A program made the position numbers and the translations under genes. 18,962 nt of DNA from UHGV virus genome UHGV-0190812. The stretch is one strand, 5' to 3'. The DNA is from a virus. Shown piece after piece: positions 1,967 through 18,962 of the stretch. Under the pieces are notes generated by a model. That model did not search any database. It saw only the letters and a list, made by a program, of their open reading frames with translations, and had not been told where the DNA came from. Each line of letters begins with the position of its first letter. Positions within the stretch are counted from its first letter, which is position 1.

Positions 1967-2064
1967 CTTCCATTAATCCCTGAATTGTTGGTTAATACGC
2001 TTGAGGATGAATGCGAACAATAAAAAAGGAGCCTGTAGCTCCCTGATGATTTTGCTTTTCATGT

Positions 2065-2280: not shown

Positions 2281-2356
2281 TGAACAAGTCCCATGTCGGC
2301 AAGCATAAGCACACAGAATATGAAGCCCGCTGCCAGAAAAATGCATTCCGTGGTTG

Positions 2357-2914: not shown

Positions 2915-3068
2915 ACAGCCCCCGTTTATTATTTATCGCCTCAGCCAGCCGCTGTGCTTTCAGTGGATTTCTGATAACAGAAAGGCCGGGAAATACCCAG
3001 CCTCGCTTTGTAACGGAGTAGATGAAAGTGATCGCGCCTACCCGGATATTATCGTGAGGATGCTTCAT
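2907..3068 (-). CDS. small hypothetical protein, translationally coupled between exo and the methylase gene
   Basis: 53-codon ORF below the ORF-track size cut-off. Its ATG overlaps the exo stop (ATGA) and its stop overlaps the methylase ATG (ATGACTGA), as read by hand from the sequence. Confidence 0.3.
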
Positions 3069-3745
3069 CGCCATTGCTCCCCAAATACAAAACCAATTTC
3101 AGCCAGTGCCACGTCCATTTTTTCGATGAACTCCGGCACCATCTCGTCAAAATTCGCCATGTACTTTTCATTCCGCTCAATCACGACATAATGCAGGCCT
3201 TCACGCTTCATACGCGGGTCATAGTTGGCAAAGTACCAGGCATCTTTTCGCGTCACCCACATGCTGTACTGCACCTGGGCCATGTAAGCCGATTTTATGG
3301 CCTCGAAACCACCGAGCCGGAACTTCATGAAATCCCGGGAGGTAAACGGGCATTTCAGTTCAAGGCCGTTGCCGTCACTGCATAAACCATCGGGAGAGCA
3401 GGCGGTGCGCATACTTTCGTCGCGATAGATGATCGGGGATTCAGTAACATTCACGCCGGAAGTGAATTCAAACAGGGTTCTGGCGTCGTTCTCGTACTGT
3501 TTTCCCCAGGCCAGCGCCTTAGCATTAACTTCCGGAGCCACACCGGTGCAAACCTCAGCCAGCAGGGTGTGGAAGTAGGACATTTTCATGTCAGGCCACT
3601 TCTTTCCTGAGCGGGGCTTTGCTATCACGTTGTGAACTTCTGAAGCGGTGATGACGCCGAGCCGTAATTTGTGCCATGCATCATCCCCCTGTTCGACAGC
3701 TCTCACGTCGATCCCGGTACGCTGCAGGATAATGTCCGGTATCAT
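3065..3745 (-). CDS. exo: Red-alpha 5'-3' exonuclease (lambda Exo)
   Basis: 226-aa translation is near-identical over its whole length to lambda Exo as recalled ([54 protein letters not shown]...). Stop/start overlap with bet. Confidence 0.95.
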
Positions 3746-5617: not shown

Positions 5618-6475
5618 TCAGCCTACTGTTCTAAAGATGAGAAGTGGTGTCATCCCATACGAATCACTTCCTCTACCAGCTTGTACCTTGACCATATCCA
5701 GGAAGGATTGTAATCCTGACTTGAGATCGTGTTCAGGGAAATCAGGGTTATTGATATTCTGATCTTGTACAGAATCTGGCAAGGCATCAATCAATCCAAT
5801 GACATGCCAGGTACCCGGTATGGTGCCACCATATTTTAAGGCTAAGTCATCAGGATTAATTGTTAAATATTCTTTATCAATAGACATCCACATCAGGTTG
5901 CCATTCTCATCAATAAAATCAACCTGGAGGATGTTGGGAACGATATTAATGAGTTTCTTAACTACACCAATGGTAAGCCCTGGAGATATCTCAATTTCAT
6001 CTGGGGTGAGTTTTCCTTTAAGCTTCGCTTTGGCTTTTGGGGGAAGGTTGACCGTGTTTAATTGTGCTTGGGCTATCTCACCAAAAATAGGCATAATTTT
6101 CTGAATAGTTGACACATCAAAAATGCGCATTTTTCCAACAGAATGAACAACTGAACCAAGATTCTCACCATTAAGTCCAGTTTTAATCATTCCTGCTTCA
6201 TCTAATTTATCGAGAAAATTAATTGGTAATGACCATGAAGCGTCGAAAGTTTTCTCTTGCGAATGTGTTAAGGTGTCGTCAGTCCCCACTTTTCCTTTAA
6301 GAATCTTGACGCTCAATTCAACGGATTTATTAGATTTATCTGTGTCAGAAGTAGTTTGTTTTACGCTCGTCACTACACCAGCATTGTGAAGCTGGGCTGT
6401 GAGGGAGCTAACGCGTACACGGTCTATGTAAAGAAAATCAAATAGTGAATCTGTGCTTTGTTGTTCGAGCTCCAT
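5618..6475 (-). CDS. hypothetical protein, 285 aa (304 aa if started at 6532); repressor-linked cargo, function unknown
   Basis: Long minus-strand ORF between the cI-like gene and pL. ATG at 6475 with AGAGAGGA about 8 nt upstream; alternative ATG at 6532. Appears AT-rich by eye relative to flanking modules. No motif I can assign (no kinase, nuclease, ATPase or TM signatures noted). Confidence 0.6.
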   Translation of the reverse strand: MELEQQSTDSLFDFLYIDRVRVSSLTAQLHNAGVVTSVKQTTSDTDKSNKSVELSVKILKGKVGTDDTLTHSQEKTFDASWSLPINFLDKLDEAGMIKTGLNGENLGSVVHSVGKMRIFDVSTIQKIMPIFGEIAQAQLNTVNLPPKAKAKLKGKLTPDEIEISPGLTIGVVKKLINIVPNILQVDFIDENGNLMWMSIDKEYLTINPDDLALKYGGTIPGTWHVIGLIDALPDSVQDQNINNPDFPEHDLKSGLQSFLDMVKVQAGRGSDSYGMTPLLIFRTVG

Positions 6476-6617
6476 TTTGCCAATCCTCTCTAAATTTTTC
6501 TTTTTCCTCGCGAATTCTTTTTTGCTTTTCATCTATCTCATCGAAAAGTTGAATGAGTTCATCCACACCATGTGAAGGCGTCTCTGATTTCACTTTCTTC
6601 AAAATTTTCTTGAACAT
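6438..6617 (-). CDS. small charged hypothetical protein (59 aa), possible partner of the downstream 285-aa protein
   Basis: First ATG of the 6438-6695 ORF (MFKKILKKVKSETPSHGVDELIQLFDEIDEKQKRIREEKEKFREDWQNGARTTKHRFTI). Overlaps the 5' end of the next gene in another frame. No convincing Shine-Dalgarno. Confidence 0.3.
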   Translation of the reverse strand: MFKKILKKVKSETPSHGVDELIQLFDEIDEKQKRIREEKEKFREDWQNGARTTKHRFTI

Positions 6618-6766: not shown

Positions 6767-7459
6767 TTACCCATGCTTCCTGTATGTCTGCGGCATGCTC
6801 CCAATAACCTTACCGAAGATGAACACCCGGTTCATCTCGTCTTTCTCGATCGGGTCCCACGGTGAGTAGCTCTTGTTATCAGAGATAACCAGCAGCTTAT
6901 CCTTCATCATTTGCAGGCGCTTTACATGGGCTGTGTCGTCGTACAGAAACGCATAGATACCATCACCGTCGAAAGATTTAACCGTGATATCAACGAACAG
7001 CAGATCACCTGGTTCGATCGTTCCTGACATGCTGTCACCACGCACGTTAATGATGCGGATATTTTCCGCCTTCCTGCCATCGAACATGTGACGAGCATCG
7101 TCAAACGAGTACTCAACCGAGCGTAGAACTTCTACAAACTCACGGTTGATTACACCCGGCCCGGCACTGACTTCTATATCAAGAACGTCAATCTTGAAGT
7201 ATTTTGAATGGCTGACAGCAGGCTTCCCTGATTGTTGACCGTCATTTCTCATCGGGCCTATGCCTGATGAGAGCCATTCTGTTCGAACACCCAATGCATT
7301 AGCTATTTCAACAATTTTTGTTGAGCCGCGCGCGTTGCCGCTTGTCAGTCTCCAGATTGTGGGTTGAGCTACGCCAGACGCCTTTGCAAGAGCGCCTTGA
7401 GACATTCCAGATTGTTCCATCGCTAGGTTTAAGCGATCAGCAAGAGTTTCTTTTTTCAT
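6767..7459 (-). CDS. cI: CI-like prophage repressor (HTH N-domain plus S24 LexA-like autopeptidase C-domain)
   Basis: HTH segment (MSQGALAKASGVAQPTIWRLTSG); Ala-Gly cleavage site (EVSAGPG), Ser in GDSMSG and Lys in HVKRL consistent with RecA-stimulated self-cleavage. ATG at 7459 sits right after a pRM-like promoter, giving a near-leaderless mRNA as in lambda; the track start at 7495 is a TTG inside the promoter. Confidence 0.85.
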   Translation of the reverse strand: MKKETLADRLNLAMEQSGMSQGALAKASGVAQPTIWRLTSGNARGSTKIVEIANALGVRTEWLSSGIGPMRNDGQQSGKPAVSHSKYFKIDVLDIEVSAGPGVINREFVEVLRSVEYSFDDARHMFDGRKAENIRIINVRGDSMSGTIEPGDLLFVDITVKSFDGDGIYAFLYDDTAHVKRLQMMKDKLLVISDNKSYSPWDPIEKDEMNRVFIFGKVIGSMPQTYRKHG

Positions 7460-7461
7460 AA

Positions 7462-7560
7462 GTTTTAATTTATACGCTTGCGTATTGATGGTCAAAACAC
7501 GTTTTGCTATTGCTTGAATTAATACGCATTGCTATTATTCATTCATTGCAATACCAATAG
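7462..7560. promoter_or_regulatory. OR region: divergent pRM-like and pR-like promoters with operator repeats
   Basis: pR (+): TTGCTT 7510-7515, 17-nt spacer, TATTAT 7533-7538. pRM (-): TTGACC (rc of 7490-7495), 16-nt spacer, ATAAAT (rc of 7468-7473). TTGCTATT motif at 7504-7511 and 7529-7536 overlaps pR -35/-10; a third palindromic site CATTGCAATA near 7544-7553. Confidence 0.5.
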
Positions 7561-7563
7561 GAA

Positions 7564-7797
7564 TTGATAATGACAAATCAAACCATTCAACTCGCAATCA
7601 GTATTACAGGTAGTCAAAAACGACTGGCAGATCTATGCGGTGTAGCCCAACCCACAGTTTGGCGTTGGCTACACGGTGGCGGAATTGATGCCCGCTATGT
7701 AATGAAAATTGTCTCAGCCACTGGTGGAAAGATTAAACCAGCAGATATTCGTCCCGACCTCGCACCATTGTTTAACGCGAGTAATTCTGCCGCCTAA
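7564..7797 (+). CDS. cro: Cro-like repressor (YdaS/Cro HTH family)
   Basis: 77-aa ORF immediately downstream of pR; HTH segment SQKRLADLCGVAQPTVWRWLHGG; AGGA Shine-Dalgarno. Confidence 0.75.
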   Translation: MIMTNQTIQLAISITGSQKRLADLCGVAQPTVWRWLHGGGIDARYVMKIVSATGGKIKPADIRPDLAPLFNASNSAA

Positions 7798-7821: not shown

Positions 7822-8367
7822 ATGACTATGCAACCACTTACATACCAACAGACTAGCGGATTTAGCCCGACTGCGGTGATAAATCGTTCTCAAACAAAAC
7901 AGGCGCCAGGCCACGAAAAAATCCGTGATGCCGTTCGCGCCTGGTCGGCTGCAGATAATCAGGATGTTGTTGCCGCACTCATTGTGAATGAGTATCGGGA
8001 GCAGGGCGGCGGCACCATCGATTTCCCTGATGATGTCAGCCGTGCACGCCAGAAGCTGTTCCGCTTCCTCGATAACAAATTCGATTCTGAAAAATACCGA
8101 AATAACGTGCGTGAACTGACCCCGGCAATTCTGGCGGTACTACCGCTGGAATATCGCGGCCACCTGGTTGAGCAGGATAGCTACATGGCTCGGCTGGCTG
8201 AAATGGAAAAGGAACTCAGTGAGGCAAAACAGGCTGTCATTCTCAACGCACCACGCCACCAGAAACTGAAGGAGATGAGTGAAGGCATTGTGTCGATGTT
8301 TCGTGTGGACCCGGATTTGGCTGGTCCACTGATGGCGATGGTCACCACCATGCTGGGGGCAATATGA
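7822..8367 (+). CDS. YdaT-family protein in the cII position (putative lysis-lysogeny regulator)
   Basis: 181-aa ORF between cro and O. EYREQGGG and PAILAVLPLEYRGHL segments resemble Rac YdaT as recalled from memory. Stop overlaps the next ORF (ATGA). Confidence 0.6.
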   Translation: MTMQPLTYQQTSGFSPTAVINRSQTKQAPGHEKIRDAVRAWSAADNQDVVAALIVNEYREQGGGTIDFPDDVSRARQKLFRFLDNKFDSEKYRNNVRELTPAILAVLPLEYRGHLVEQDSYMARLAEMEKELSEAKQAVILNAPRHQKLKEMSEGIVSMFRVDPDLAGPLMAMVTTMLGAI

Positions 8368-8453
8368 CAGGTTCGGAAATGGCGAAAGCCGGTCTGCGCG
8401 AACAGAACCGACTTTCAGGTGCAAATCGTAACACACTCATTGCGGGAGGAATT

Positions 8454-9383
8454 ATGGCAAACACTGCTGAGATATTCAATTTTCCAGTGCCGGATGTGGC
8501 ACAAAAGGAGCGGCGCGTGGCAGATCTCGACGATGGTTATACGCGCATTGCAAATGAGTTGCTGGAAGCTGTGATGCTGGCCGGATTAACACAGCACCAG
8601 CTTCTGGTCTTCCTGGCTGTCATGCGCAAAACATATGGCTTTAATAAAAGACTGGATTGGGTGAGCAACGAGCAACTTTCCGAATTGACCGGGATATTGC
8701 CGCACAAGTGTTCTGCTGCAAAAAGCGTTCTGGTAAAGCGTGGGATTCTTATTCAGAGCGGGCGGAATATCGGCATTAATAATGTGGTCAGTGAATGGTC
8801 AACATTACCCGAATCAGGTAAGAAAAATAAAGTTTACCTGAAAGAGGTAAATTTACCTGAATCAGGTAAGAAAAGTTTACCCAAATCAGGTAAAGGCGTT
8901 TACCCGAATCAGGTAAACACAAAAGACAAACTAACAAAAGACAATATAAAACCTTTTTCGTCCGAGAATTCTGGCGAATCCTCTGACCAACCAGAAAACG
9001 ATCTTCCTGTGGTGAAACCGGATGCTGCAATTCAGAGCGGCAGCAAGTGGGGGACAGCAGAAGACCTGACCGCCGCAGAGTGGATGTTTGACATGGTGAA
9101 GACCATCGCGCCATCAGCCAGAAAACCGAATTTTGCAGGGTGGGCTAACGATATCCGCCTGATGCGTGAACGTGACGGACGTAACCACCGCGACATGTGC
9201 GTGCTGTTCCGCTGGGCATGCCAGGACAACTTCTGGTCCGGTAACGTGCTAAGTCCGGCCAAACTCCGCGACAAGTGGACCCAGCTCGAAATCAACCGAA
9301 ACAAGCAACAGGCTGGCGTGACAGCCGGCAAACCAAAACTCGACCTGACGAACACTGACTGGATTTACGGGGTGGAGCTATGA
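8454..9383 (+). CDS. O: replication initiator O (lambda O family) containing the origin iterons
   Basis: From the ATG at 8454 (GGGAGGA Shine-Dalgarno) the N-terminus MANTAEIFNFP...RVADLDDGYTRIANELLEA...LLVFLAVMRKTYGFNK parallels lambda O (MTNTAKILNF...NVADLDDGYARL...VLLAILRKTYGWNK). An in-frame upstream start at 8364 is also possible. Confidence 0.85.
   Translation: MANTAEIFNFPVPDVAQKERRVADLDDGYTRIANELLEAVMLAGLTQHQLLVFLAVMRKTYGFNKRLDWVSNEQLSELTGILPHKCSAAKSVLVKRGILIQSGRNIGINNVVSEWSTLPESGKKNKVYLKEVNLPESGKKSLPKSGKGVYPNQVNTKDKLTKDNIKPFSSENSGESSDQPENDLPVVKPDAAIQSGSKWGTAEDLTAAEWMFDMVKTIAPSARKPNFAGWANDIRLMRERDGRNHRDMCVLFRWACQDNFWSGNVLSPAKLRDKWTQLEINRNKQQAGVTAGKPKLDLTNTDWIYGVEL
8805..8917. repeat. 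ori iterons: four to five ~18-bp internally palindromic repeats TTACC(C/T)GAATCAGGTAA(G/A) followed by an A/T-rich stretch
   Basis: Copies at about 8805, 8853, 8877 and 8900 (23-24 bp or multiples apart), plus a degenerate copy at about 8834. The A/T-rich run 8917-8955 lies immediately downstream. Same architecture as the lambda origin inside O. Confidence 0.7.
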
Positions 9384-10081
9384 AAAACATCGCCGCACAG
9401 ATGGTTAACTTTGACTGTGAGCAGATGCGCCGGATCGCCAACAACATGCCGGAACAGTACGACGAAAAGCCACAGGTACAGCAGGTAGCGCAGATCATCA
9501 ACGGTGTGTTCAGCCAGTTACTGGCAACTTTCCCGGCGAGCCTGGCTAACCGTGACCAGAATGAACTGAACGAAATCCGCCGCCAGTGGGTTCTGGCTTT
9601 CCGGGAAAACGGGATCACCACAATGGAACAGGTTAACGCTGGAATGCGCGTAGCCCGTCGGCAGAATCGACCATTCCTGCCATCACCCGGGCAGTTTGTC
9701 GCCTGGTGCCGGGAAGAAGCATCTGTTAACGCCGGGCTGCCAAACGTCAGCGAGCTGGTTGATATGGTTTACGAGTATTGCCGGAAGCGTGGCCTGTATC
9801 CGGATGCAGAGTCTTATCCGTGGAAATCGAACGCGCATTACTGGTTGGTTACCAACTTGTACCAGAACATGCGGGCCAATGCGCTGACTGACGCGGAATT
9901 ACGGCGCAAGGCTGCCGATGAACTGACCTGTATGACAGCGCGAATTAACCGTGGTGAGACGATACCTGAACCAGTAAAACAACTTCCTGTTATGGGCGGT
10001 AGACCTCTAAATCGTGCACAGGCTCTGGCGAAGATCGCAGAAATCAAAGCTAAGTTTGGGCTGAAAGGAGCAAGTGTATGA
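9380..10081 (+). CDS. P: replication protein P (DnaB helicase loader)
   Basis: 233-aa translation is near-identical to lambda P as recalled (MKNIAAQMVNFD.EQMRRIANNMPEQYDEKPQVQQVAQIINGVFSQLLATFPASLANRDQNE...). Confidence 0.95.
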   Translation: MKNIAAQMVNFDCEQMRRIANNMPEQYDEKPQVQQVAQIINGVFSQLLATFPASLANRDQNELNEIRRQWVLAFRENGITTMEQVNAGMRVARRQNRPFLPSPGQFVAWCREEASVNAGLPNVSELVDMVYEYCRKRGLYPDAESYPWKSNAHYWLVTNLYQNMRANALTDAELRRKAADELTCMTARINRGETIPEPVKQLPVMGGRPLNRAQALAKIAEIKAKFGLKGASV

Positions 10082-10262
10082 CGGGCAAAGAAAGATTCTT
10101 CGTTACTTGAAGAAATACAGTGTTTATTGTTCTTTTGAGATGTTGCGAAAACAGGAATTACCACGGTAAACATTTTGTAGCTGACCCATGCATTGATGAA
10201 ATATTGTGGGTATTTAATAGAGCATAATTATCAAGTTGCGTAAGATGTGGAGTAATGGTATG

Positions 10263-10288
10263 GGCGGTGTTAGCACCGCCTTTAATTA
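10263..10288. terminator. hairpin between P and the 115-aa gene (possible weak terminator)
   Basis: GGCGGTG-TTAG-CACCGCC perfect 7-bp stem followed on the plus strand by TTTAATT; weak U-tract. Confidence 0.3.
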
Positions 10289-10633
10289 AAGCTCAGAAAG
10301 CTGTAATAATATTTTTTCTGGAGTGGTTTCGTTGGAAATGCTAAATAATACAGCACCTTTGACTGATTCATCTCTCATTTCAATTTCACATGAATTATGG
10401 TTGTATGAGATTGCATAATTTTTTAATGTTCTTTCGCTTTGCCACCACACCATATTTGCAAGACTTCCGTTATACGTTCTTATCTCGATTGATCCGGGCA
10501 GGGCTTTCCAGATAACACCTCCTAGCAATGTAAGAGCGGCTGCACCAACATTTTTTGCATGATGGTTAGAACGTTCCATTACCCCTTCAGCATAACGATG
10601 AAGAATCTCTATGTCAGTCGCTTTGATAGTCAT
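10286..10633 (-). CDS. hypothetical protein, 115 aa; reverse-oriented AT-rich moron in the ren slot
   Basis: ORF opposite in orientation to the flanking replication and nin genes, with visibly lower GC and an AT-rich upstream region (10634-10860) containing an extended -10-like TGCTATATT on the minus strand. No family recognised. Confidence 0.55.
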   Translation of the reverse strand: MTIKATDIEILHRYAEGVMERSNHHAKNVGAAALTLLGGVIWKALPGSIEIRTYNGSLANMVWWQSERTLKNYAISYNHNSCEIEMRDESVKGAVLFSISNETTPEKILLQLSEL

Positions 10634-10862
10634 GTTATTTCCATGTAATTGCTGTGTGAAACGTAGTGTTAGTTAGGTGTTAGCAGAATATAGCATCAAA
10701 GTCGAAACCGGTAGAAAAAATATTGGTGATTATTTCGCTGCATTTGGAACTGGAACAACAATGATTATTAGCATGATTGCTTTTTCCAGTCATAAGAATG
10801 AGTCGTGTTAATTTTTTCTATTCAATAGGAAATTATCATGTCATCAGAATATGAACAACTAT

Positions 10863-10960
10863 GGTGACTTCTGCGCTAAACGGGGACGTTTATGCGCACA
10901 TACAATCCAAACTCTCTTCTCCCTCCACAGATGCAGAAATACACCTGCGATTTTTTGCAT
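10863..10960. repeat. ~98-bp direct repeat, copy A (tR2-like terminator module upstream of the cassette)
   Basis: About 95% identical by eye to 13348-13446 (GGTGACTTCTGCGCTAAACGGGGACGTTTATGCGCACA...CACCTGCG-T(7)-GCAT); contains a short GC stem plus T-run. Confidence 0.8.
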
Positions 10961-11111
10961 TCGGTGTTTTTGGCAGCCAAGAACAGGGAGTCTCTGTTTG
11001 TCTGGCGGCTAAAGGTGATATGGAAATCGTGATGTCTTAGCCTAAAGTAGTTGCAACAGTTGGAGCGATTATGGTGGTAGTAGTGATCATCGCGCCCCCC
11101 ATATGCAAGGG

Positions 11112-11224
11112 TTGACGACATTATTTATCCGGCGCTATATTCTGTGCGTTGCCGCAAAATCGGCACACGGGATTGGCGTCCCGGAATACTACTCAACGCA
11201 TACCGCGTTAAGCGGTTTTTTTAT
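11112..11224 (+). promoter_or_regulatory. promoter plus ~75-nt structured leader ending in an intrinsic terminator (attenuator or small RNA) upstream of the Bro-N gene
   Basis: TTGACG (11112-11117), 18-nt spacer, TATATT (11136-11141). Downstream stem-loops TGCCG/CGGCA and CGGGA/TCCCG, then ACCGC-GTTAA-GCGGT followed by T(7) at about 11202-11222. Confidence 0.35.
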
Positions 11225-11378
11225 GCGCTAAGCACGGCTACGCCCAAATTATGGTGGGCTGTGTGAGGGCTTCTTCGGGAGCGCCGGGTTTGAGTAGCCG
11301 GTTACGCCAACCTTGCACAGTTCACCACCAGTCGATTGGCGTCGTTGGTGGTGATGGTTAACCTGATGAGGTGATACT

Positions 11379-11939
11379 ATGACTACTCAATTAGCATTCC
11401 ACAAAACGACGTTTACCCCAATTTGCCACAATAACAGAATTTGGCTTACTGCCACTGAAGTTGGTTTAGCTCTGGAATATGCGGACGATAAAGCAGTTCA
11501 GCGCATTTACTCTCGTCACTCAGATGAATTTACAGATATGATGACAAGGGTGGTCAAAGTGACCACCCCTCGTGGAATGCAGGAGTCTCGAGTATTTAGC
11601 CTTCGCGGAGCCCATTTGATCGCCATGTTTGCACGAACTCCTGTAGCCAAAGAGTTCCGCCGCTGGGTTCTGGATATTCTCGATCGAGAAGTTCAACAAT
11701 CCCCAATCATAAAACAATTCACTGATAACGAACTTTGCACACTTGCTTGGTTATGGCGAGCAGGGGATGTGATGTTAACCGCCTGCCAGAATGTTACTCC
11801 ACTTCTTCAGGTTGCGGAGCACCGCGAAGCTGGTCGCTTTACTTCTATCGGGCAAGAATATCCCCAGATACTACATAAGGCGCGCGAAATCCTTGCCAGA
11901 GAAACGGCACCATGTAAAACTCCAGCCTTGGCAGGATAA
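11379..11939 (+). CDS. Bro-N domain protein (putative antirepressor-like)
   Basis: 186-aa ORF. N-terminal FHKTTFTPICHNNRIWLTATEVGLALEY...IYSRHSDEF...VFSLRGAHLIAMFARTPVAKEFRRWVLDIL fits the Bro-N fold motif pattern of phage antirepressors. GAGGTGA Shine-Dalgarno. Confidence 0.7.
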   Translation: MTTQLAFHKTTFTPICHNNRIWLTATEVGLALEYADDKAVQRIYSRHSDEFTDMMTRVVKVTTPRGMQESRVFSLRGAHLIAMFARTPVAKEFRRWVLDILDREVQQSPIIKQFTDNELCTLAWLWRAGDVMLTACQNVTPLLQVAEHREAGRFTSIGQEYPQILHKAREILARETAPCKTPALAG

Positions 11940-12150
11940 TAAGTGGAGCAGGGTGTTGCCACATTTGCGTCAGGATAGATTGCAATAGTTTTACATATTA
12001 GGCGCTGAATGGATGCAATCAGATAGCGCACTGGGCGGCAATGATTAAGGCTTCAGATAAGCCAAGTAAGCACTGAAAAAGTTCAATGTAATCAAATTCT
12101 CTTTATGGTATTTTCGTTAGACATCTCATACGCTTAGATGGAAATTTGAA

Positions 12151-12351
12151 ATGATGTATTCAGTAACTTTCGATGAAACTGGACGAGTAGAAGATATTGA
12201 ACTAGAGCGTGAGGTTAGAGCCGGAGATAGACTCTCGCTTAATATTGATGGTCTTGATGGTATTTATATAGTCATGACTGTTAGCGGCCCTATCTATGAA
12301 AATGTTTGTGTGCCAATGAATATCCGGGTTCAAAAGTATTGGAAGCAATGA
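12151..12351 (+). CDS. hypothetical small protein (66 aa)
   Basis: ORF within the repeat-flanked cassette, followed directly by a hairpin terminator. Weak Shine-Dalgarno; no family recognised. Confidence 0.3.
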   Translation: MMYSVTFDETGRVEDIELEREVRAGDRLSLNIDGLDGIYIVMTVSGPIYENVCVPMNIRVQKYWKQ

Positions 12352-12356
12352 TGTAT

Positions 12357-12385
12357 AATCCCCTCAGATGATCGAGGGGATTTTT
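12357..12385 (+). terminator. intrinsic terminator hairpin whose 3' arm contains the Shine-Dalgarno of the next ORF
   Basis: ATCCCCTC-AGATGAT-GAGGGGAT stem (8 bp) followed by TTTTT, then the ATG at 12386; the GAGGGGA in the 3' arm is the only Shine-Dalgarno for that ORF. Confidence 0.45.
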
Positions 12386-12559
12386 ATGTCAGATTGGAAC
12401 ATTGCAGCAAAACCGCAAGAGGAACGTGACAATGTTAACTTTGACCTTGCTGCGTCTGGTGTTGCATATAAAGAACGCTCCAAAATTCTCGTCATAGCCG
12501 AAGTGGTGATGTGCCAGCAACCAGAGCATCTTTGTGATTACTTCATGGAGCGCGTCTGA
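12386..12559 (+). CDS. hypothetical small protein (57 aa)
   Basis: ATG at 12386 with GAGGGGA 5 nt upstream; the track ORF starts 18 nt earlier at 12368. No family recognised. Confidence 0.35.
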   Translation: MSDWNIAAKPQEERDNVNFDLAASGVAYKERSKILVIAEVVMCQQPEHLCDYFMERV

Positions 12560-12631
12560 CTTCTCCATTGAGCATAGCATCACCCAGCCTAAAACATCTG
12601 ACCCTAGATATATGAAACAGGAGGAAGATAA

Positions 12632-13264
12632 ATGAAATTCTCTCGAATTGAACAAAGCCCAACAACGGATGAGGGTAATTACGTGAAAATCGATCATGAC
12701 TTTGGCTATTTTCTAGATCCTAATAAAATGGCCTCGATAGCTAACTATGAGGATGAGTCTGCCGCGCTATTAAAATTGATGCTAATTCATGAGGACTTTC
12801 TTCGGGTTGTTATTGAAAACTTACGACCTGATGGCTCTGAAAAATACAATTCGATAAGAAGCTATAAGTATTTTGCGTCAAAGCTGTCTGCCGCAGTTCT
12901 GTTAGGGCTTCCTGTCTCGCTTGCAGACGCTATGGCTGAGCTCAACACAATACGTAACAAGTACGCTCATAAAATTGAATATGTAATTACAAATGAAGAG
13001 GTTGATAAACTCGCAGAATCGATTAAAAACATAAAGTTAGAAGAGATTAACCATGGTGGCTACGTGCATCAAGTTGTTGAGCCAATTCTCAAGGATGGAA
13101 TCTACGCTATAGCGTTGATGAAAGAGCTACCTCCTGATCTTGAAGAAAATCGCATTCGTATTTGTAAGTTAGTCACTAGCGCGCATTGTATGTGTTTGCT
13201 CGGGGCCTTCTGGTTAATTAACACTCTGCACGTAAAGGGTAAGCTCAAGCTTTCCAAGGCCTGA
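12632..13264 (+). CDS. hypothetical protein (210 aa) with HEPN-like Rx4H motif; candidate abortive-infection or toxin RNase
   Basis: Strong AGGAGG Shine-Dalgarno. Markedly AT-rich by eye. Contains ELNTIRNKYAHK (R-x4-H in an RN..AH context, as in HEPN families such as Abi_2 or DUF4145). The assignment is inference from this one motif. Confidence 0.6.
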   Translation: MKFSRIEQSPTTDEGNYVKIDHDFGYFLDPNKMASIANYEDESAALLKLMLIHEDFLRVVIENLRPDGSEKYNSIRSYKYFASKLSAAVLLGLPVSLADAMAELNTIRNKYAHKIEYVITNEEVDKLAESIKNIKLEEINHGGYVHQVVEPILKDGIYAIALMKELPPDLEENRIRICKLVTSAHCMCLLGAFWLINTLHVKGKLKLSKA

Positions 13265-13347
13265 GTAGATCAATCGTATCATTTTCGCAAAATTGATTCT
13301 CCGTAATCAATTCGCCATAATTGTATCACCGGAGCCTGAACAACTTC

Positions 13348-13446
13348 GGTGACTTCTGCGCTAAACGGGGACGTTTATGCGCACACACAATCCAAACTCT
13401 CTTCTCCCTTCACAGATGCAGAAATGCACCTGCGTTTTTTTGCATC
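13348..13446. repeat. ~98-bp direct repeat, copy B (tR2-like module immediately upstream of ninB)
   Basis: Near-identical to 10863-10960 with about five mismatches. Confidence 0.8.
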
Positions 13447-13474
13447 CAGCGTCTGACCTCTACGGAGGTGAAGC

Positions 13475-13930
13475 GTGAACCTCCCACAAGACGGCATCAA
13501 ATTGCATCGCGGTAACTTCACCGCTATCGGTCGGCAGATCCAGCCTTATCTGGAGGACGGCAAATGCTTTCGCATGGTGCTTAAACCGTGGCGAGAGAGA
13601 CGCAGTCTTTCCCAGAATGCACTCAGCCACATGTGGTACAGCGAAATCAGTGAATACCTCATCAGTAGGGGTAAAACGTTCGCTACTGCAGCATGGGTAA
13701 AAGATGCTCTCAAACACACATACCTCGGTTATGAAACCAAAGAACTGGTTGATGTCGTAACTGGTGAAATCACTACTATCCAGTCGTTACGTCATACTTC
13801 CGATCTTGATACCGGAGAGATGTATGTCTTCCTGTGCAAGATTGAAGCCTGGGCGATGAATATTGGCTGTCACCTGACTATTCCGCAGAGCTGCGAGTTC
13901 CAGCTGCTGCGCGACAAGCAGGAGGCGTAA
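13475..13930 (+). CDS. ninB: NinB-family recombination protein
   Basis: 151-aa ORF (GTG start in the track, GGAGG upstream). [17 protein letters not shown] resembles the lambda NinB segment RSLDQNRKLWACLGDVS as recalled; position after the tR2-like element. Confidence 0.7.
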
Positions 13931-14100
13931 TGGCTACACCGCTTATTCGTGTCATGAACGGGCACATCTACAGAGTATCAAATCGTCGTAAGCGTAAGCC
14001 TGAGCTGAAACCATCCGAAATACCAACACTGCTCGGATATACCGCCAGCCTGGTTGATAAAAAATGGTTGCGACTGGCAGCAAGGAGGAATCATGGCTGA
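13930..14100 (+). CDS. ninE: NinE-like small protein
   Basis: 56-aa ORF below the track size cut-off. ATG overlaps the ninB stop (TAATG). C-terminus [24 protein letters not shown] resembles lambda NinE ([21 protein letters not shown]) as recalled. Confidence 0.45.
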   Translation: MATPLIRVMNGHIYRVSNRRKRKPELKPSEIPTLLGYTASLVDKKWLRLAARRNHG

Positions 14101-14383
14101 TTTGAGAAAAGCAGCGCGTGGTCGGGAATGCCAGGTAAGAATCCCTGGCGTATGTAATGGCAATCCTGAAACGTCAGTACTGGCACATATCCGGCTGGCT
14201 GGATTGTGCGGTACCGGTATCAAACCGCCAGACCTGATTGCCACCATTGCATGTTCTGCCTGCCACGACGAAATCGACCGTCGCACGCATTTTGTTGACG
14301 CTGGATATGCAAAAGAATGTGCGCTGGAAGGTATGGCGAGAACACAGGTTATCTGGCTGAAAGAGGGGGTAATTAAGGCGTGA
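14093..14383 (+). CDS. YbcO-like (DUF1364-type) Cys-rich nin-region protein
   Basis: 96 aa from the ATG at 14093 (AGGAGG Shine-Dalgarno); Cys cluster CQVRIPGVC...CSAC; lies between NinE-like and RusA as in the DLP12 gene order I recall. Confidence 0.55.
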
Positions 14384-14748
14384 ATACTTACTGCATCACA
14401 CTACCCTGGCCGCCGAGCAATAACCGCTATTACCGCCATAATCGCGGGCGCACGCACGTCAGTGCAGAGGGGCAGGCATACCGCGATAACGTCGCCCGAA
14501 TCATTAAAAACGCAATGCTGGATATCGGCCTGGCTATGCCTGTGAAAATCCGCATTGAGTGCCACATGCCGGATCGCCGTCGCCGTGACCTGGATAATCT
14601 GCAAAAAGCCGCTTTTGACGCACTCACTAAAGCAGGTTTCTGGCTGGATGATGCTCAGGTCGTTGATTACCGCGTTGTGAAGATGCCCGTTACCAAAGGT
14701 GGGAAGCTGGAGCTGACCATCACCGAACTGGGAATGAATGATGTTTGA
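14380..14748 (+). CDS. rusA: RusA Holliday-junction resolvase
   Basis: 122-aa translation is near-identical to E. coli DLP12 RusA as recalled ([91 protein letters not shown]...). Confidence 0.9.
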
Positions 14749-14878
14749 GTCTTATATGGCAGAACGTCTTCGCCACCGCAGGATGCGCCTGCGCTTATAT
14801 CGTTTCCCCGGTTCTGTTTTGACCGATTACCGGATACTGAAGAATTACGCCAAAACACTGAAAGGAGCTGCCGCATGA
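14741..14878 (+). CDS. ylcG: YlcG-like small protein
   Basis: 45-aa ORF below the track cut-off ([45 protein letters not shown]). Overlaps the rusA stop and the Q start (ATGA). Matches DLP12 YlcG as recalled. Confidence 0.5.
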
Positions 14879-15564
14879 ATACCCAATATTTACAGTATGT
14901 CCGCGAGCAACTCATTGTGGCTACTGCTGATTTGAGCGGAGCAACGAAAGGCCAGCTTGAAGCCTGGCTGGAGCATGCACAATTTGATACTGGTACATAT
15001 AAACGAAAGAAGCCGCGCATTCTGGATGAGGTAACGGGCAAGATGATTACGCTGGATAATCCGCCGATTTCCGGTAAGCAGTCGTACGCAAAAGGTTCAT
15101 CCATTGCACTGGTCAGCCAGGTTGAGTTCTCAACATCTTCATGGCGCCGCGCGGTTCTGTCTCTCGAAGAACATCAGAAAGCGTGGTTGCTGTGGAGTTA
15201 CAGTGAAAACATCAGCTTTGAATACCAGGTGGCGATCACCCAGTGGGCGTGGTCTGAATTCAGGGGGTATCTCGGCGCGAAGAGGGTGGCAGGCAAGACC
15301 ATGGAGCGCCTGAAGAAGCTGATATGGCTGGCAGCGCAGGATGTCAAAGCAGGGTTGGTCGGGAAAGATGCCTACGAATACCAGAAGCTGGCGGAACTGG
15401 TTGGCGTGGCGAAATCCACCTGGACAGAGACATACCTGCCTCACTGGTTGGCAATGCGTAGCTGCTTTATGCGACTCGATAGCGGTGCGCTTATCTCAGT
15501 AACGCGATCACGTTCACAACAAAAGGCGACAAGTTCGCACGTAAGTCTTGCAAAACCGAACTGA
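14875..15564 (+). CDS. late-gene antiterminator Q (QuuD-like)
   Basis: 229-aa ORF directly after rusA-ylcG, upstream of a candidate late promoter and the lysis cassette. Assignment by synteny and length; no motif independently verified. Confidence 0.6.
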   Translation: MNTQYLQYVREQLIVATADLSGATKGQLEAWLEHAQFDTGTYKRKKPRILDEVTGKMITLDNPPISGKQSYAKGSSIALVSQVEFSTSSWRRAVLSLEEHQKAWLLWSYSENISFEYQVAITQWAWSEFRGYLGAKRVAGKTMERLKKLIWLAAQDVKAGLVGKDAYEYQKLAELVGVAKSTWTETYLPHWLAMRSCFMRLDSGALISVTRSRSQQKATSSHVSLAKPN

Positions 15565-15693
15565 AACGCTTATATTTCATGTAAATCTGATATCGTCGCC
15601 ATAGCTTTGTTGGTCGACAAAGAATTAACAGCCTCGCCATCGTGCGGGGCTTTTACTTTACATGCTGTGAACACAAAAAAAGTAACTTTTATG

Positions 15694-15722
15694 TTGATGT
15701 AGAAGCACTTCATGCGTAATAT
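15694..15722 (+). promoter_or_regulatory. candidate late promoter pR'
   Basis: TTGATG (15694-15699), 17-nt spacer, TAATAT (15717-15722), about 130 bp downstream of the Q stop. Confidence 0.4.
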
Positions 15723-16367
15723 TTCGCGCCATCATGTTTACGAACAGATATCAAATTGAAATTAGCGCGAAAGACTTGTCATTCTGATCTACATTCGTTA
15801 GGTTGGATGAGCAGACAGTACTTATCGGACTGCTAAGGAAGCGAAATGCAAAACATTCAAGCAAAAGTTACTTATTTCATGGCCTTTGTCGTAGTACCCG
15901 TCTGGGGTGTATGGATGTGTTCGCTCGTTAAATAATCGATCAATCAGTTTCTTCTTAAAATTCCAAGGTTTTCTATTCCTTATCCAGTTACAATGTTGCC
16001 GAATCTAACGATCTGCGCAGACGTTGGGTAACTTTAACTGGCATAAGGTGCACTTTATCGACGAAACTCCAAACACTGCTTCCGGAACAAAAGTCTGGGT
16101 TCTCAACTTTATGGTTGGGATAACTATGTTAGTTGTAGGCTTTTTCGGTACACGCTTGATTAACCAAGTTGATGATATTGATAAGTCTCTCCAGACGACA
16201 CGAGAAGTACAGGCGGCCCAAACAGAAATTATTAAAGGTCTTCAGCGCGACCTTGATAAAAAAGGGCAAGACATTGAAAAACTTAAAAACGATGTTGATC
16301 GCCTGAAAGAAATCAACGCTGAATTGAAGGCGAAGCTGAAAGTATCCAGCACGCTAGATACCTCGAA

Positions 16368-16395
16368 GGTCGCCGATGGCGGCCTTTTTTTGTTT
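16368..16395 (+). terminator. intrinsic terminator (first of tandem pair, tR'-like)
   Basis: GGTCGCC-GAT-GGCGGCC stem (one G-U pair) followed by TTTTTTTGTTT. Confidence 0.55.
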
Positions 16396-16422
16396 CTAAG
16401 CACTTTGCGTTACCCTCACATT

Positions 16423-16448
16423 GCCAGCCTGTCGCTGGCTTTTTTATT
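16423..16448 (+). terminator. intrinsic terminator (second of tandem pair)
   Basis: GCCAGC-CTGTC-GCTGGC perfect 6-bp stem followed by TTTTTTATT. Confidence 0.65.
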
Positions 16449-16550
16449 CCAGGCTTGTGGGGATCTTCAACTCCGTGCTTTGTCGTTAAATTACCCCGTG
16501 AGTCTGTTCCCTATCATTTAGAGTCCCGATCATCCGTCGGCGGCAAAATC

Positions 16551-16868
16551 ATGGCTATTCATATGCACGAAAAAGAGAGCATTGCCGGGATGTCCTGGCT
16601 CGTTCTGCTGATCTTCGCGTGCTGGGGCGGGCTTGTCCGTTACCTGATTGATGTGAAGCAGAGCAAAGCAACATGGAGCTGGATTAATGCTCTGGCTCAG
16701 ATAGTGGTATCGGGTTTTACCGGTGTTATTGGTGGCCTGATAAGTATCGAAAGCGGATTTAGCATTTACATGATTCTCGCCACAGCAGGGATCAGCGGTG
16801 CAATGGGTTCAGTTGCGCTGACTTACTTCTGGGAACGACTGACAGGGGTGAAAAATGCAAAACCTTAA
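16551..16868 (+). CDS. putative holin (about 105 aa, multiple TM segments)
   Basis: Directly upstream of and overlapping the endolysin gene. Hydrophobic segments WLVLLIFACWGGLV, IVVSGFTGVIGGLISI, IYMILATAGISGAMGSVALTYF. Several in-frame Met codons near the start (M1, M5, M14), compatible with holin/antiholin dual starts. Not similar to lambda S as I recall it. Confidence 0.6.
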   Translation: MAIHMHEKESIAGMSWLVLLIFACWGGLVRYLIDVKQSKATWSWINALAQIVVSGFTGVIGGLISIESGFSIYMILATAGISGAMGSVALTYFWERLTGVKNAKP

Positions 16869-17331
16869 TCCTCAGCGTAAAGCCTTCCTCGATATGCTGG
16901 CGTGGTCAGAAGGAACTGATAACGGATGGCAGAAGACCAGAAATCATGGTTATGACGTTATCGTTGGTGGCGAACTGCTTACTGATTACTCCGATCATCC
17001 ACGTAAGCTGGTTACGCTTAACCCGAAACTGAAATCCACCGCCGCCGGGCGTTATCAACTGCTGTCGAAATGGTGGGACGCCTACCGTAAACAGCTTGGA
17101 CTGAAAGATTTCTCCCCGAAAAGCCAGGATGCGGTGGCGTTACAGCAGATTAAAGAACGCGGCGCGCTGCCGCTGATTGATCGGGGTGATATTCGTCAGG
17201 CTATTGATCGTTGCAGCAATATTTGGGCTTCATTGCCCGGTGCTGGCTACGGTCAGTATGAACACAAGATCGATAGTCTGATTGCCAAATTCAAAGAAGC
17301 TGGCGGGGTGGTTAATGAAACTTCGCTATAA
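16855..17331 (+). CDS. R: endolysin R (lambda-type lytic transglycosylase)
   Basis: 158-aa translation near-identical to lambda R as recalled (NQRKAFLDMLAWSEGTDNG.QKTRNHGYDVIVGGEL.TDYSDHPRKLVTLNPKLKST.AGRYQLLS.WWDAYRKQLGLKDFSPKSQDAVALQQIKERGALP...). Confidence 0.95.
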   Translation: MQNLNPQRKAFLDMLAWSEGTDNGWQKTRNHGYDVIVGGELLTDYSDHPRKLVTLNPKLKSTAAGRYQLLSKWWDAYRKQLGLKDFSPKSQDAVALQQIKERGALPLIDRGDIRQAIDRCSNIWASLPGAGYGQYEHKIDSLIAKFKEAGGVVNETSL

Positions 17332-17707
17332 GCTGGTTATTTCTGCTTTCCTCCTGACTTTATTCGGTTCTCTCGTCTGGTCAGCTAACCACTACCACAG
17401 CAAATACCAGCGCGAAAAGAAACGTGCTGATGAGGCTGTACAAAATGCCGAATCGGCAACCGCTATTACCAATAACGTCCTGCAATCACTGCAAATCGTC
17501 AATACAGTTCTGGAGGCTAACCAGCATGCAAAACAGCAGATCGCACTGGAGTCACAGAGAACCCAGGCTGATATCAAAGTGGCTGTTGCGGATGATGATT
17601 GTGCTGTACGCCCTGTGCCTGCTGCCGCTGCTGACCGGTTGCGAAAGTTCGCGGACAGTTTACGTGCCAGTTCCGGCTATACCGTTACCGGCGAGTCTGA
17701 CCGCTGA
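17315..17707 (+). CDS. Rz: Rz-like i-spanin
   Basis: ATG at 17315 with GGGGTGG Shine-Dalgarno, overlapping the R stop. N-terminal TM segment (LVISAFLLTLFGSLVWSANHY, compare lambda Rz ...CLSWAVNHY) followed by a charged helical periplasmic domain. Confidence 0.6.
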   Translation: MKLRYKLVISAFLLTLFGSLVWSANHYHSKYQREKKRADEAVQNAESATAITNNVLQSLQIVNTVLEANQHAKQQIALESQRTQADIKVAVADDDCAVRPVPAAAADRLRKFADSLRASSGYTVTGESDR

Positions 17708-17867
17708 AACCCCGCAACCAGCCATTTCTGAACCGCTGACTTATGCGGGTAGCCTAGATTTGAATGTCAGTCTGTTGTCGGCGCTAGGGCAGTGCAATCT
17801 GGATAAAGCGGGGATCAGAAGGATAGAGGCGAGCCGGTCAGGTAGAAGTGAATCAGGCTCAAAGTGA
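17592..17867 (+). CDS. Rz1: Rz1-like o-spanin lipoprotein (overlapped architecture)
   Basis: +1-frame ORF starting inside Rz. MMIVLYALCLLPLLTGC lipobox followed by a Pro-rich segment (VPVPAIPLPASLTAETPQP). Runs 160 nt past the Rz stop, hence overlapped rather than embedded. Confidence 0.5.
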   Translation: MMIVLYALCLLPLLTGCESSRTVYVPVPAIPLPASLTAETPQPAISEPLTYAGSLDLNVSLLSALGQCNLDKAGIRRIEASRSGRSESGSK

Positions 17868-18237
17868 AGCGGAAAAGGTCTTCGGCATAAGGTGACGTAG
17901 TAATAATTACAGTCAACTGACTTTTGGAACGAAGCATGTTGAACCTCCTTAATTGATGTTATTTGAGTGAGGAAGGCATTCTGTCCTTCTAAAGTGTCAC
18001 CTAAATCATGTAGGCAACTCGTCCAACGCGTTGGACATGCCTCCCCATTAGTGAGTCGTATTGATTGCGACTCTTCAAAGAATTCATTACTGGAGATATG
18101 AAAATGGTTTCACTACGTATGGAGGAGGCTGTGTTTATCAGTCCCGCAGGTATTCAATGGGTGCCTGCAATAATGTTTGTGGCGGTAAACGTGTCGTGAT
18201 GGGATTTTGGTGTCTCGAAAGCAAAGGAGACACCAAA

Positions 18238-18432
18238 ATGAACTATTCAAACATTATCTGCCCAACCAACCGTCTGCAGGTGACCATTCTGCATGAAAAA
18301 GATGTGCTGACTGGTATCGGTGATGCCATCGGCGAATTGCACACATACCAATGTTCACGGGAGCACGTGTGCAGCTATAGAGAAACGACGGAATGTATTG
18401 TAAGAAAGCGGGAGATTCTTCAAAACAGGTAA
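18238..18432 (+). CDS. hypothetical small Cys-containing protein (64 aa)
   Basis: ATG at 18238 with AAGGAG 8 nt upstream; followed by a strong terminator. The track ORF (18061) extends upstream without a Shine-Dalgarno. Confidence 0.4.
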   Translation: MNYSNIICPTNRLQVTILHEKDVLTGIGDAIGELHTYQCSREHVCSYRETTECIVRKREILQNR

Positions 18433-18443
18433 GAACAATCAAA

Positions 18444-18471
18444 GCCATCGGTTATCAACCGGTGGCTTTTT
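18444..18471 (+). terminator. rho-independent terminator
   Basis: About 10-bp stem GCCATCGGTT / AACCGGTGGC (one G-U pair) with a 3-nt loop, followed by TTTTT. Confidence 0.55.
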
Positions 18472-18484
18472 CATTGGAGTAGAT

Positions 18485-18835
18485 ATGCCGCCACGAACAC
18501 CAAAAGCCTGCCGCGTTCGCGGTTGCCGCAATACCACTACTGACCCGTCAGGCTATTGTGAAAGCCATAAAAGCGAAGGCTGGAAGCAATACAAGCCAGG
18601 ACAATCCCGTCATCAGCGCGGTTATGGTTCGAAGTGGGATGTTATCCGCGTGCGTGTCCTGAAGCGTGACAAAGGCCTGTGTCAGCTATGTCTGCGTGCT
18701 GGTGTGGTGCGTGAGGCGAAAACTGTTGACCACATCATCCCTAAAGCGCATGGCGGCACTGATGTTGACAGTAATCTGCAGAGTCTGTGCTGGCTGTGTC
18801 ATAAGACGAAGACGGCCCGTGAACGGTTGAAGTGA
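18485..18835 (+). CDS. HNH endonuclease (packaging-associated type found next to cos/terminase)
   Basis: 116-aa ORF with Cys pairs CRVRGC, CESH, CQLC, CWLCH and the VDHIIPKAHGG...N HNH core; GGAG Shine-Dalgarno. Location just before a cos-like region is as in HK97-type phages. Confidence 0.85.
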   Translation: MPPRTPKACRVRGCRNTTTDPSGYCESHKSEGWKQYKPGQSRHQRGYGSKWDVIRVRVLKRDKGLCQLCLRAGVVREAKTVDHIIPKAHGGTDVDSNLQSLCWLCHKTKTARERLK

Positions 18836-18854
18836 TAATAATTCTCAACTTCCT

Positions 18855-18925
18855 GAGGGGAGGGGCGGGTCAAATCCCTGCGGCCTGACGTCTTCCGGAC
18901 TGCCCGCCCCATCGTTTTTTTATAC
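18855..18925 (+). other. GC-rich inverted repeat with T-run: terminator and/or cos packaging-site candidate
   Basis: GGGGCGGG (18861-18868) and CCCGCCCC (18902-18909) flank a 33-nt loop containing a GACGTC palindrome, followed by T(7). GGGCGG recalls the start of the lambda cohesive end. AGGAG lies near the window end, as for a following terminase gene. Confidence 0.3.
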
Positions 18926-18962
18926 CCGCGAAAAATGAAATTTAACCAGGAGTGCCGCATAT

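Follow-up and report, generated by a model that had tools for sequence, protein, structure and literature searches.

An antirepressor-family gene behind an IsrK/C4-type leader in the nin region of a lambdoid Escherichia coli prophage

The gene and its leader RNAs

The window analyzed in this study is the whole 18,962-nucleotide (nt) stretch of DNA from the virus genome UHGV-0190812, which represents the early-right, nin and lysis region of a lambdoid prophage of Escherichia coli. Our subject is the open reading frame (ORF) at positions 11,379 to 11,939 on the + strand, here called ant, together with the leader that precedes it. This ORF runs from an ATG (11,379-11,381) to a TAA (11,937-11,939), encodes 186 amino acids (aa) and is preceded by the Shine-Dalgarno (SD) sequence GAGGTGA at 11,368-11,374 on the same strand. 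An earlier examination of the letters alone (the sequence-only reading) had described it as a Bro-N antirepressor-type gene located outside the immunity region, and both descriptions proved sound. The ORF occupies exactly this interval and its product carries the domains described below. In addition, O and P lie between it and the cI, cro and cII genes, and NinB, YbcO, RusA and Q follow downstream.

In Pfam searches, which were judged against the curated gathering scores, Bro-N (PF02498) was found at residues 17-100 (nt 11,427-11,678; 40.6 bits against a cut-off of 25.6, E = 4e-10) and P22_AR_C (PF10548) at residues 112-179 (nt 11,712-11,915; 57 bits against a cut-off of 22.4, E = 2e-15). The latter match covers positions 5-72 of the 73 in the profile, and the P22_AR_N domain gave no Pfam match in the protein. 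A domain search of the C-terminal half had been put forward in the sequence-only reading as a check that could refute it; the outcome instead favors the antirepressor idea, because P22_AR_C is also the domain of the proven P22 antirepressor. The best match in PHROGs was phrog_245, 'anti-repressor Ant' (E = 3e-49), and 4199 homologues were found at E <= 1e-5. The exact 186-aa sequence occurs on 18 public contigs, where it is named 'BRO family protein'. The AlphaFold2 model of the protein (predicted local distance difference test score 78) has an alpha/beta fold in its N-domain, and residues 116-145 and 151-179 form two long helices that run antiparallel. This ORF is genuine and belongs to the antirepressor family.

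The sequence-only reading had also placed this gene behind its own regulated leader in a nin-region cassette. This part was borne out, since the leader encodes an IsrK-like small RNA (sRNA) and a C4-like antisense RNA whose pairing sites covary among phages. All of the leader features given in this section lie on the + strand. The leader begins with a sigma-70-like promoter at 11,112-11,141 (TTGACG, an 18-nt spacer and TATATT), which is the best promoter-like match of the region (10/12) and ends 9 nt before the isrK match, although promoter and terminator consensus matches are no commoner here than in shuffled sequences. A promoter-like sequence occurs at the equivalent position in most related loci, and the one found here corresponds to PisrK of Gifsy-1, where a homologous promoter drives isrK-orf45-anrP (PMC4825925).

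The IsrK-like sRNA at 11,150-11,222 was detected with the Rfam model RF01394 (isrK) at 60.7 bits against a cut-off of 50. It is 73 nt long and contains an intrinsic terminator stem at 11,202-11,216, followed by a T run. The C4-like antisense RNA at 11,247-11,332 matches the Rfam model RF01695 (C4) over its full length, at 72.7 bits against a cut-off of 45. This is the type of element to which C4 of P1/P7, CI of P4 and STnc1160 of Salmonella belong, and here it ends 46 nt before the ant ATG.

Two short segments of the C4-like RNA would serve for recognition, namely a' in the loop of hairpin 2 (TTGAGTAG, in RNA UUGAGUAG; 11,290-11,297) and b' in a single-stranded joint (ACGCCAA; 11,304-11,310). 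In the IsrK-like RNA, b1 (UUGGCGU, in DNA TTGGCGT; 11,173-11,179) occupies the loop of hairpin 2 and a1 (CTACTCAA, in RNA CUACUCAA; 11,189-11,196) the linker, and both are candidate decoy sites. Downstream, b2 (UUGGCGU, in DNA TTGGCGT; 11,336-11,342) lies just after C4, and the proposed target a2 (CTACTCAA, in RNA CUACUCAA; 11,383-11,390) falls on codons 2-4 of ant. The complementarity is exact, over 8 nt between a' and both a1 and a2, and over 7 nt between b' and both b1 and b2. Within the window, CTACTCAA has three sites, which are a1, the complement of a' and a2 (0.47 expected), and GATTGGCGTC is found only at 11,171 and 11,334, that is, at b1 and b2 (0.03 expected). An alternative helix is also available, in that the C4 3' arm (TCACCACC; 11,322-11,329), which ends in CACCACCA, can pair with GGTGGTGA at 11,347-11,354 and would then set b2 in a loop.

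The duplex between C4 and IsrK was predicted at -34.7 kcal/mol, a value equalled in 1 of 500 shuffles. In the minimum-free-energy fold of the 253-nt read-through RNA, b1 and a1 of IsrK are paired in cis with b' and a' of C4 (z = -3.9). The corresponding shuffle test of duplex energy between C4 and its downstream region was not significant (59/500). A 36-codon ORF (11,251-11,361) overlaps C4, with its ATG inside the conserved C4 5' arm, and its end lies 17 nt before the ant ATG. It is the positional equivalent of orf45 in Gifsy-1. The length and end point of this ORF vary by locus, from 15 to more than 123 codons, so that a coding function, or translational coupling to ant, is uncertain here.

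We also considered how the cassette promoter itself might be controlled. LexA-controlled antirepressors of the Gifsy type have a LexA box at their promoter, whereas a search of positions 9,939-18,962 for such boxes (CTGT-N8-ACAG, with at most one mismatch) found none, and hence none near 11,112-11,141. Likewise, no OR-like repeat that might represent a cI operator was apparent by eye at this promoter. The lack of both makes it plausible that the cassette is controlled independently of cI cleavage.

Covariation across related leaders

To place these elements in a comparative setting, 17 leader loci were fetched from other phages, including Gifsy-1, VT2/Stx2-II-type and other Shiga toxin (Stx) phages, phage 2851, phiV10, a Klebsiella phage, cdtI, mEp460 and ST64B. 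Sixteen of them (L001 and L005-L020, except L006) were combined with the window into a 17-sequence MAFFT alignment, A5, which was fitted to no structure. Aaphi23 (L006) was left out because its upstream sRNA belongs to another family. The isrK and C4 pair was found in 16/16 of the aligned phage loci, and in Aaphi23 C4 stands behind the different sRNA. In four loci, the Rfam model RF03163 ('a1, b1 targets of C4') overlaps isrK. Pair counts were also obtained on a further alignment, A6, and were rejected as circular, since its segments had been picked by complementarity; we therefore rely on the unbiased A5.

In A5, the helices of C4 were 100%, 100% and 95% paired, and 11 pairs were changed on both sides. 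The b1-b' interaction was 100% paired, with compensatory changes at 6/7 pairs, and this was matched in 0/500 shuffles; a slid control gave only 25-57% pairing. For b'-b2, pairing reached 95% with five compensatory pairs (again 0/500 shuffles), and the unpaired cells came from two misaligned sequences. The alternative helix between the C4 3' arm and the GGTGGTGA site was 97% paired, with only one compensatory change. Covariation among these phages is thus three-way, involving b1, b' and b2 together. Six b types and 13 distinct a' loops were distinguished among the 17 loci, and the b' type found in the window, ACGCCAA, is common to 12 of them, including Gifsy-1, Stx phages and phiV10. The a' segments were compared by the length of their complements. 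In IsrK, cognate complements had a mean length of 6.8 nt and non-cognate combinations one of 4.0 nt; near the start codon, the means were 7.9 and 4.6 nt, respectively. In the 15 loci whose leaders differ in sequence, a2 is located at -22 to -8, over the SD sequence. Taken on sequence grounds, the RNA arm of the cassette is well supported by this covariation.

These results also bear on the reading in which the ORF and its 'leader' are chance features without dedicated regulation. The only support for it is the caveat on promoter and terminator consensus matches given above. Against it stand the two Pfam domains and two Rfam matches above their cut-offs, the 4199 homologues and the covariation over 17 loci. 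These already refute it, and we assign it virtually no probability.

As a side observation, the SfV/cdtI-type phages in this set (L012 and L015-L020, which comprise Ayreon, cdtI, mEp460, ST64B and others) carry isrK and C4 directly after cro/cII, in the early-right operon. In those of the records that are annotated, the two RNAs lie inside long coding sequences named 'immunity region', 'transcriptional regulator' or 'peptidase', and therefore these calls probably read through non-coding RNA genes.

The payload protein, its frameshift and its genomic setting

The proteins encoded behind homologous leaders are of several kinds. The payload is ORF6N only in Gifsy-1 (AnrP), ORF6N with P22_AR_C in Stx phages, Bro-N only in phiV10, and Bro-N with P22_AR_C in the window, PhiR26_1 and Aaphi23. 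The last 104 residues of the Stx-phage Ant are 82.7% identical to P22 Ant. We considered orthology with AnrP of Gifsy-1 and ruled it out, as AnrP is an ORF6N-only protein and the BLASTP match (E = 0.004) extends only over the first 59 residues. In Salmonella phage SPN3UB and Klebsiella phage ST11-VIM1phi8.1, homologues with 39-51% identity to the window protein fill the place of ant within a P22-type immI region, which is the classical setting of an antirepressor. Arc/Mnt-like genes lie next to these homologues in both phages, and SPN3UB has a sar RNA as well. In the window, neither Arc/Mnt ORFs (in the ORF list) nor sar RNA (with Rfam) were found. It follows that one Ant family is placed under two different control systems, the immI type in those phages and the C4/IsrK cassette here.

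This distribution is relevant to a reading in which the protein is not an antirepressor, and would instead be a DNA-binding regulator of the Bro network, or a growth or exclusion factor acting on DNA or on a host target. The C-terminal domain common to P22 Ant argues against this, as do the close homologues in the immI ant slot of SPN3UB and the Klebsiella phage. Furthermore, every functional precedent behind such leaders is an antirepressor or an induction function, and PADLOC gave no defense-system match for Ant or for four neighboring ORFs. We therefore regard this reading as quite improbable.

In phage phiSTEC1589-Stx1c (L005), two antirepressor cassettes stand in tandem at 1844-3645. The first consists of isrK, C4 and an ORF6N/P22_AR_C gene. 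In the second, an RNA of the sRNA-Xcc1 family (2868-2958) lies directly 5' of a Bro-N/P22_AR_C gene, whose product is 39% identical to the window protein.

The sequence-only reading had overlooked a frameshift in ant, as a result of which the 186-aa copy is without the conserved C-terminal tail. The four closest relatives, from three E. coli chromosomes and phage PhiR26_1, are 92-94% identical at the protein level and 200-202 aa long, and three of the four share the same tail end. An alignment of the DNA with CP104681, CP027461, PhiR26_1 and CP010230 places the difference at 11,910-11,911 (+), where the window has CC and these relatives have a single C (GGCACCATG in the window, against GGCA-CATG or GGCG-CATG). 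The window ORF leaves the family frame after Ala177 and continues with nine foreign residues, and the stop at 11,937-11,939 is due to the insertion. The remnant of the tail, HVKLQPWQDNKWSRVLPHLRQDRLQ followed by a stop, is still encoded at 11,911-11,988 (+), out of frame and within a +1-frame ORF spanning 11,791..11,988. The tail is kept in homologues down to 51% identity, and in 30 family members its W, D and W residues hardly vary.

Sequencing error was considered as the cause of the frameshift and is disfavored by the exact 186-aa product on 18 public contigs. Given this recurrence, and allowing that the contigs may not be independent, the allele is probably genuine. A further truncated allele, P0123, belongs to the same 90% cluster as the window Ant. 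It has been cut by a nonsense mutation to 184 aa, ends in ...HVKFQPW and was counted on 141 contigs, versus 18 for the 186-aa allele. Since the two truncations are separate, tail loss has arisen at least twice. Despite the frameshift, the protein retains its two Pfam domains and, in the model, its two long helices. Because nearly invariant tail residues have been removed, the activity of Ant may be impaired; the protein arm may be weakened or inactive here, and the RNA arm looks intact.

It is then necessary to consider a stronger version, in which the protein arm is dead. The allele would then be decaying, in effect a pseudogene, and activity would be left only in the IsrK and C4 RNAs, for instance in immunity or cross-talk with other prophages that have matching sites. 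In line with this, the window copy has a 1-nt insertion that none of the four closest relatives has and is without the W/D/W tail, and the independent 184-aa truncation indicates that tail loss recurs. Moreover, the RNA elements of the window score as well as those of intact loci, and their b' type is the one common to 12/17 loci. On the other hand, neither Pfam domain is cut short, the two long helices are still present in the model, the exact 186-aa allele persists on 18 contigs, and repeated truncation is equally compatible with a dispensable tail. Weighing these points, we consider a dead protein arm possible, but rather unlikely.

The surroundings of the cassette are those of a mosaic. 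Some matching segment of the window is present in 4998 of 5426 complete E. coli genomes and none of these genomes matches more than 80% of it, from which we conclude that the window is a mosaic. The leader and gene together were found in 620/5426 of these genomes at >=80% identity, and in 135 over >=80% of the length. Two direct repeats of 160 nt, on the + strand at 10,808-10,967 and 13,293-13,452, are 83% identical and 2485 nt apart, and they bracket the ant cassette and three further ORFs as an insert of about 2.5 kb. The left copy contains a terminator-like hairpin at 10,932-10,949, and the right copy, which lies immediately upstream of ninB, contains one at 13,414-13,437. Part of the left copy (about 10,822-10,960) occurs alone in lambdoid phages that are without the ant cassette, including phage 82, where it is marked as a 'possible regulator-binding site'. 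This occurrence in cassette-free phages identifies the bracketed segment as a mosaic insert.

The cI repressor, a candidate target of Ant, is encoded at 6,767-7,495 (-) and contains HTH_3 and Peptidase_S24 domains with the autocleavage motifs Ala111-Gly112, Ser155 and Lys192. It is followed on the + strand by cro (7,564-7,797), cII (7,822-8,367), O (8,364-9,383) and P (9,380-10,081), so that ant lies 3.9 kb from cI, beyond O and P, and three small or unknown ORFs stand between it and NinB (13,475-13,930, +). YbcO and RusA come after NinB, and Q (14,875-15,564, +) is followed by the lysis genes. In PhiR26_1, where the cassette is present, the C-terminal domain of cI is identical to that of the window cI and the helix-turn-helix domain is different. 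The cassette is therefore not tied to one operator specificity, and this single case is suggestive of a link between the cassette and the common C-terminal domain of cI.

Several neighboring genes were noted in passing. An ORF of VCH_CASS14, a family of integron-cassette proteins (10,286-10,633, -; 115 aa, Pfam E = 6e-20), stands between P and the ant cassette, at a position that is held in relatives by ren or, in PhiR26_1, by the PD-lambda-1 defense gene; it has no PADLOC match here. Inside the insert, a 63-aa homologue of the DNA polymerase III theta subunit is encoded at 12,368-12,559 (+; Pfam E = 6e-20), and its equivalent in E. coli 95-3322 is annotated as frameshifted. The ORF after it (12,632-13,264, +; 210 aa) belongs to phrog_5712 and has neither a Pfam nor a PADLOC match. 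The gene for a DUF6414 protein of 304 aa (5,618-6,532, -) lies downstream of cI and on the same strand, where lambda has rexAB; again, there was no PADLOC match. The lysis genes are followed, at the right-hand end of the window, by a gene for a 116-aa HNH endonuclease (18,485-18,835, +; Pfam E = 4e-16), which is where some lambdoid phages usually have the HNH partner of their terminase. Finally, directly behind Q is an RNA of the isrJ family (15,580-15,653, +; 64.9 bits against a cut-off of 37), with a terminator hairpin at its end. It looks like a short late-promoter leader RNA that Q would antiterminate.

A proposed switch of the P1 immI/Gifsy-1 type

In P1 and P7, the C4 RNA represses ant by pairing with the a2 and b2 sites. 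The immI region of these phages (c4-icd-ant1/ant2) and the CI/seqA region of P4 resemble the window in that a C4-family RNA has its target in the same transcript and an antirepressor gene downstream, with complementary sites both upstream (a1/b1) and downstream (a2/b2) of the C4 RNA, and in that specificity resides in short, variable and co-varying segments. The window element differs from that of P1 in belonging to a lambdoid prophage with cI/cro immunity, in having no icd-like gene, and in that its upstream target region is a separate terminated sRNA.

The likeness to Gifsy-1 is closer. The leaders are homologous, each with a promoter, an IsrK with its terminator and a C4-like element (the STnc1160/orf45 region of Gifsy-1) that are recognized by the same Rfam models. 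The b' segment (ACGCCAA) is identical, the predicted cis pairing of IsrK with C4 corresponds to 'structure A' of Gifsy-1, and the payload begins 46-54 nt after C4 and starts with MTTQ in both. However, AnrP is ORF6N only and the window payload is Bro-N with P22_AR_C. The Gifsy-1 cassette is located between Q and isrJ/lysis, which is why isrJ there follows anrP, whereas that of the window lies between P and ninB, with isrJ separately after Q. The a' loops also differ, and a2 covers the SD sequence in Gifsy-1 and codons 2-4 in the window. In addition, orf45 overlaps the anrP start (AUGA), whereas the 36-codon ORF of the window stops 17 nt earlier.

Experiments have been reported for Gifsy-1, in which the read-through isrK-orf45-anrP mRNA is translated about 140-fold more when IsrK is supplied in trans (Hershko-Shalev et al. 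2016, PMC4825925). Transcription of antQ rises in response to AnrP, which also induces the prophage, and the authors likened IsrK to seqA of P4 and the processed RNA STnc1160 to P4 CI (PMC4825925). A later paper reported that the Rfam C4 and isrK profiles detect relatives of CI and seqA beside 'Bro network' genes. When norfloxacin was given, late-promoter activity in an ant knock-out of phage Phi24B was about 30-55% of the wild-type level (Fogg et al. 2011, PMC3064807), which indicates that Ant aids derepression upon induction, and the same role was reported for Ant of phage 2851 (PMC3064807), the leader of which is among our 17 loci. The Stx phages (VT2-Sakai/933W-type, Phi24B and 2851) share with the window the nin-region site between the replication genes and Q, the isrK and C4 leader (L008, L009 and L013) and the C-terminal P22_AR_C domain, and differ in that their Ant has an ORF6N rather than a Bro-N N-terminus. 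With the immI region of P22 (mnt-arc-ant-sar), the window shares the P22_AR_C domain. P22_AR_N, arc, mnt and sar are present in P22 and none of them in the window, so that the window protein is not P22 Ant proper. Control in P22 is by protein repressors, in contrast to the C4/IsrK RNAs here.

Based on these comparisons, we propose that the ORF is the protein payload of an antisense-RNA switch of the P1 immI/Gifsy-1 isrK type, carried in a mosaic nin insert and antagonizing a CI-type repressor. We hold this as a whole to be fairly probable, with substantial room for doubt. By analogy with c4-icd-ant of P1/P7 and with Gifsy-1 (PMC4825925), most transcripts in a lysogen would end at the IsrK terminator, and those that read through would yield C4, probably by processing, which would then pair with a2 and b2 and block translation of ant. 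An excess of IsrK would act as a decoy for C4 and open ant translation, and strong rightward transcription after induction would also outrun C4. Judging from domain homology and the precedents above, the Bro-N/P22_AR_C protein would bind a CI-type repressor non-covalently, and this binding would reinforce or trigger derepression independently of RecA-mediated cleavage. The antirepressor reading is supported by homology and context; the activity of the window protein, like its target, is assigned by analogy with its domains and with related cassettes, and should be understood as putative.

Several points weigh against this proposal and were taken into account in its grading. The experiments on antirepressor activity come from other family members only (PMC3064807, PMC4825925). 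The window protein is not an orthologue of AnrP, and its P22_AR_C domain shows only 22% identity to that of the Stx/P22 Ant. A search against the sequences of PDB chains found no relative (best E = 0.81), and a fold comparison gave no informative match. The conserved tail motif (QPWxDxxW) is missing in frame. The proposed a2 is found at +4 to +11 in the window and in its near-identical relative PhiR26_1, which is atypical, and the shuffle test of duplex energy between a' and the initiation region was not significant (81/1000). Because of the latter result, we treat a2 as a putative target, on the basis of the exact 8-mer triple and the arrangement in other loci; a position at +4 to +11 is still within the footprint of the ribosome. 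Finally, phages with a 100% identical cI have no ant cassette, and the cassette is therefore not needed for that immunity type.

The sequence-only reading had interpreted the gene as a second induction switch or a means of interference between prophages, with an antirepressor acting on CI-type repressors. The Bro-N antirepressor family, the site, the leader and the precedents uphold this interpretation in part, with repressor binding and any action in trans or between prophages as putative elements. The protein is not an AnrP orthologue, and the copy in the window is frameshifted. The latter should not be taken for a working switch.

The architecture itself has already been described, and the window offers nothing new in kind. 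What the C4/IsrK switch does is to explain the 'leader' and to tie lambdoid prophages of E. coli to the paradigms of P1, P4 and Gifsy-1. In practical terms, annotation pipelines leave both RNAs unmarked. With respect to specificity, the window combines a b' key that is common with Gifsy-1, many Stx phages and phiV10 with a private a' key, the putative target of which has moved to codons 2-4 of ant. The six b' types and 13 a' types might be seen as a two-key code, by which prophages residing in one cell could, through their IsrK and C4 RNAs, cross-activate or cross-silence the antirepressors of one another. We raise this very tentatively and think it unlikely. If one common key suffices for partial pairing, there would be a network at the RNA level that coordinates induction in polylysogens. 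If this is true, the recurrent loss of the Ant tail (in the 186-aa and 184-aa alleles) could be a disarming of one node favored by the host, with the RNAs of that node still acting on other prophages. More generally, antirepressors offer a way to induction around the RecA-dependent cleavage of cI, and those of Stx phages influence the late expression that is linked to the toxin.

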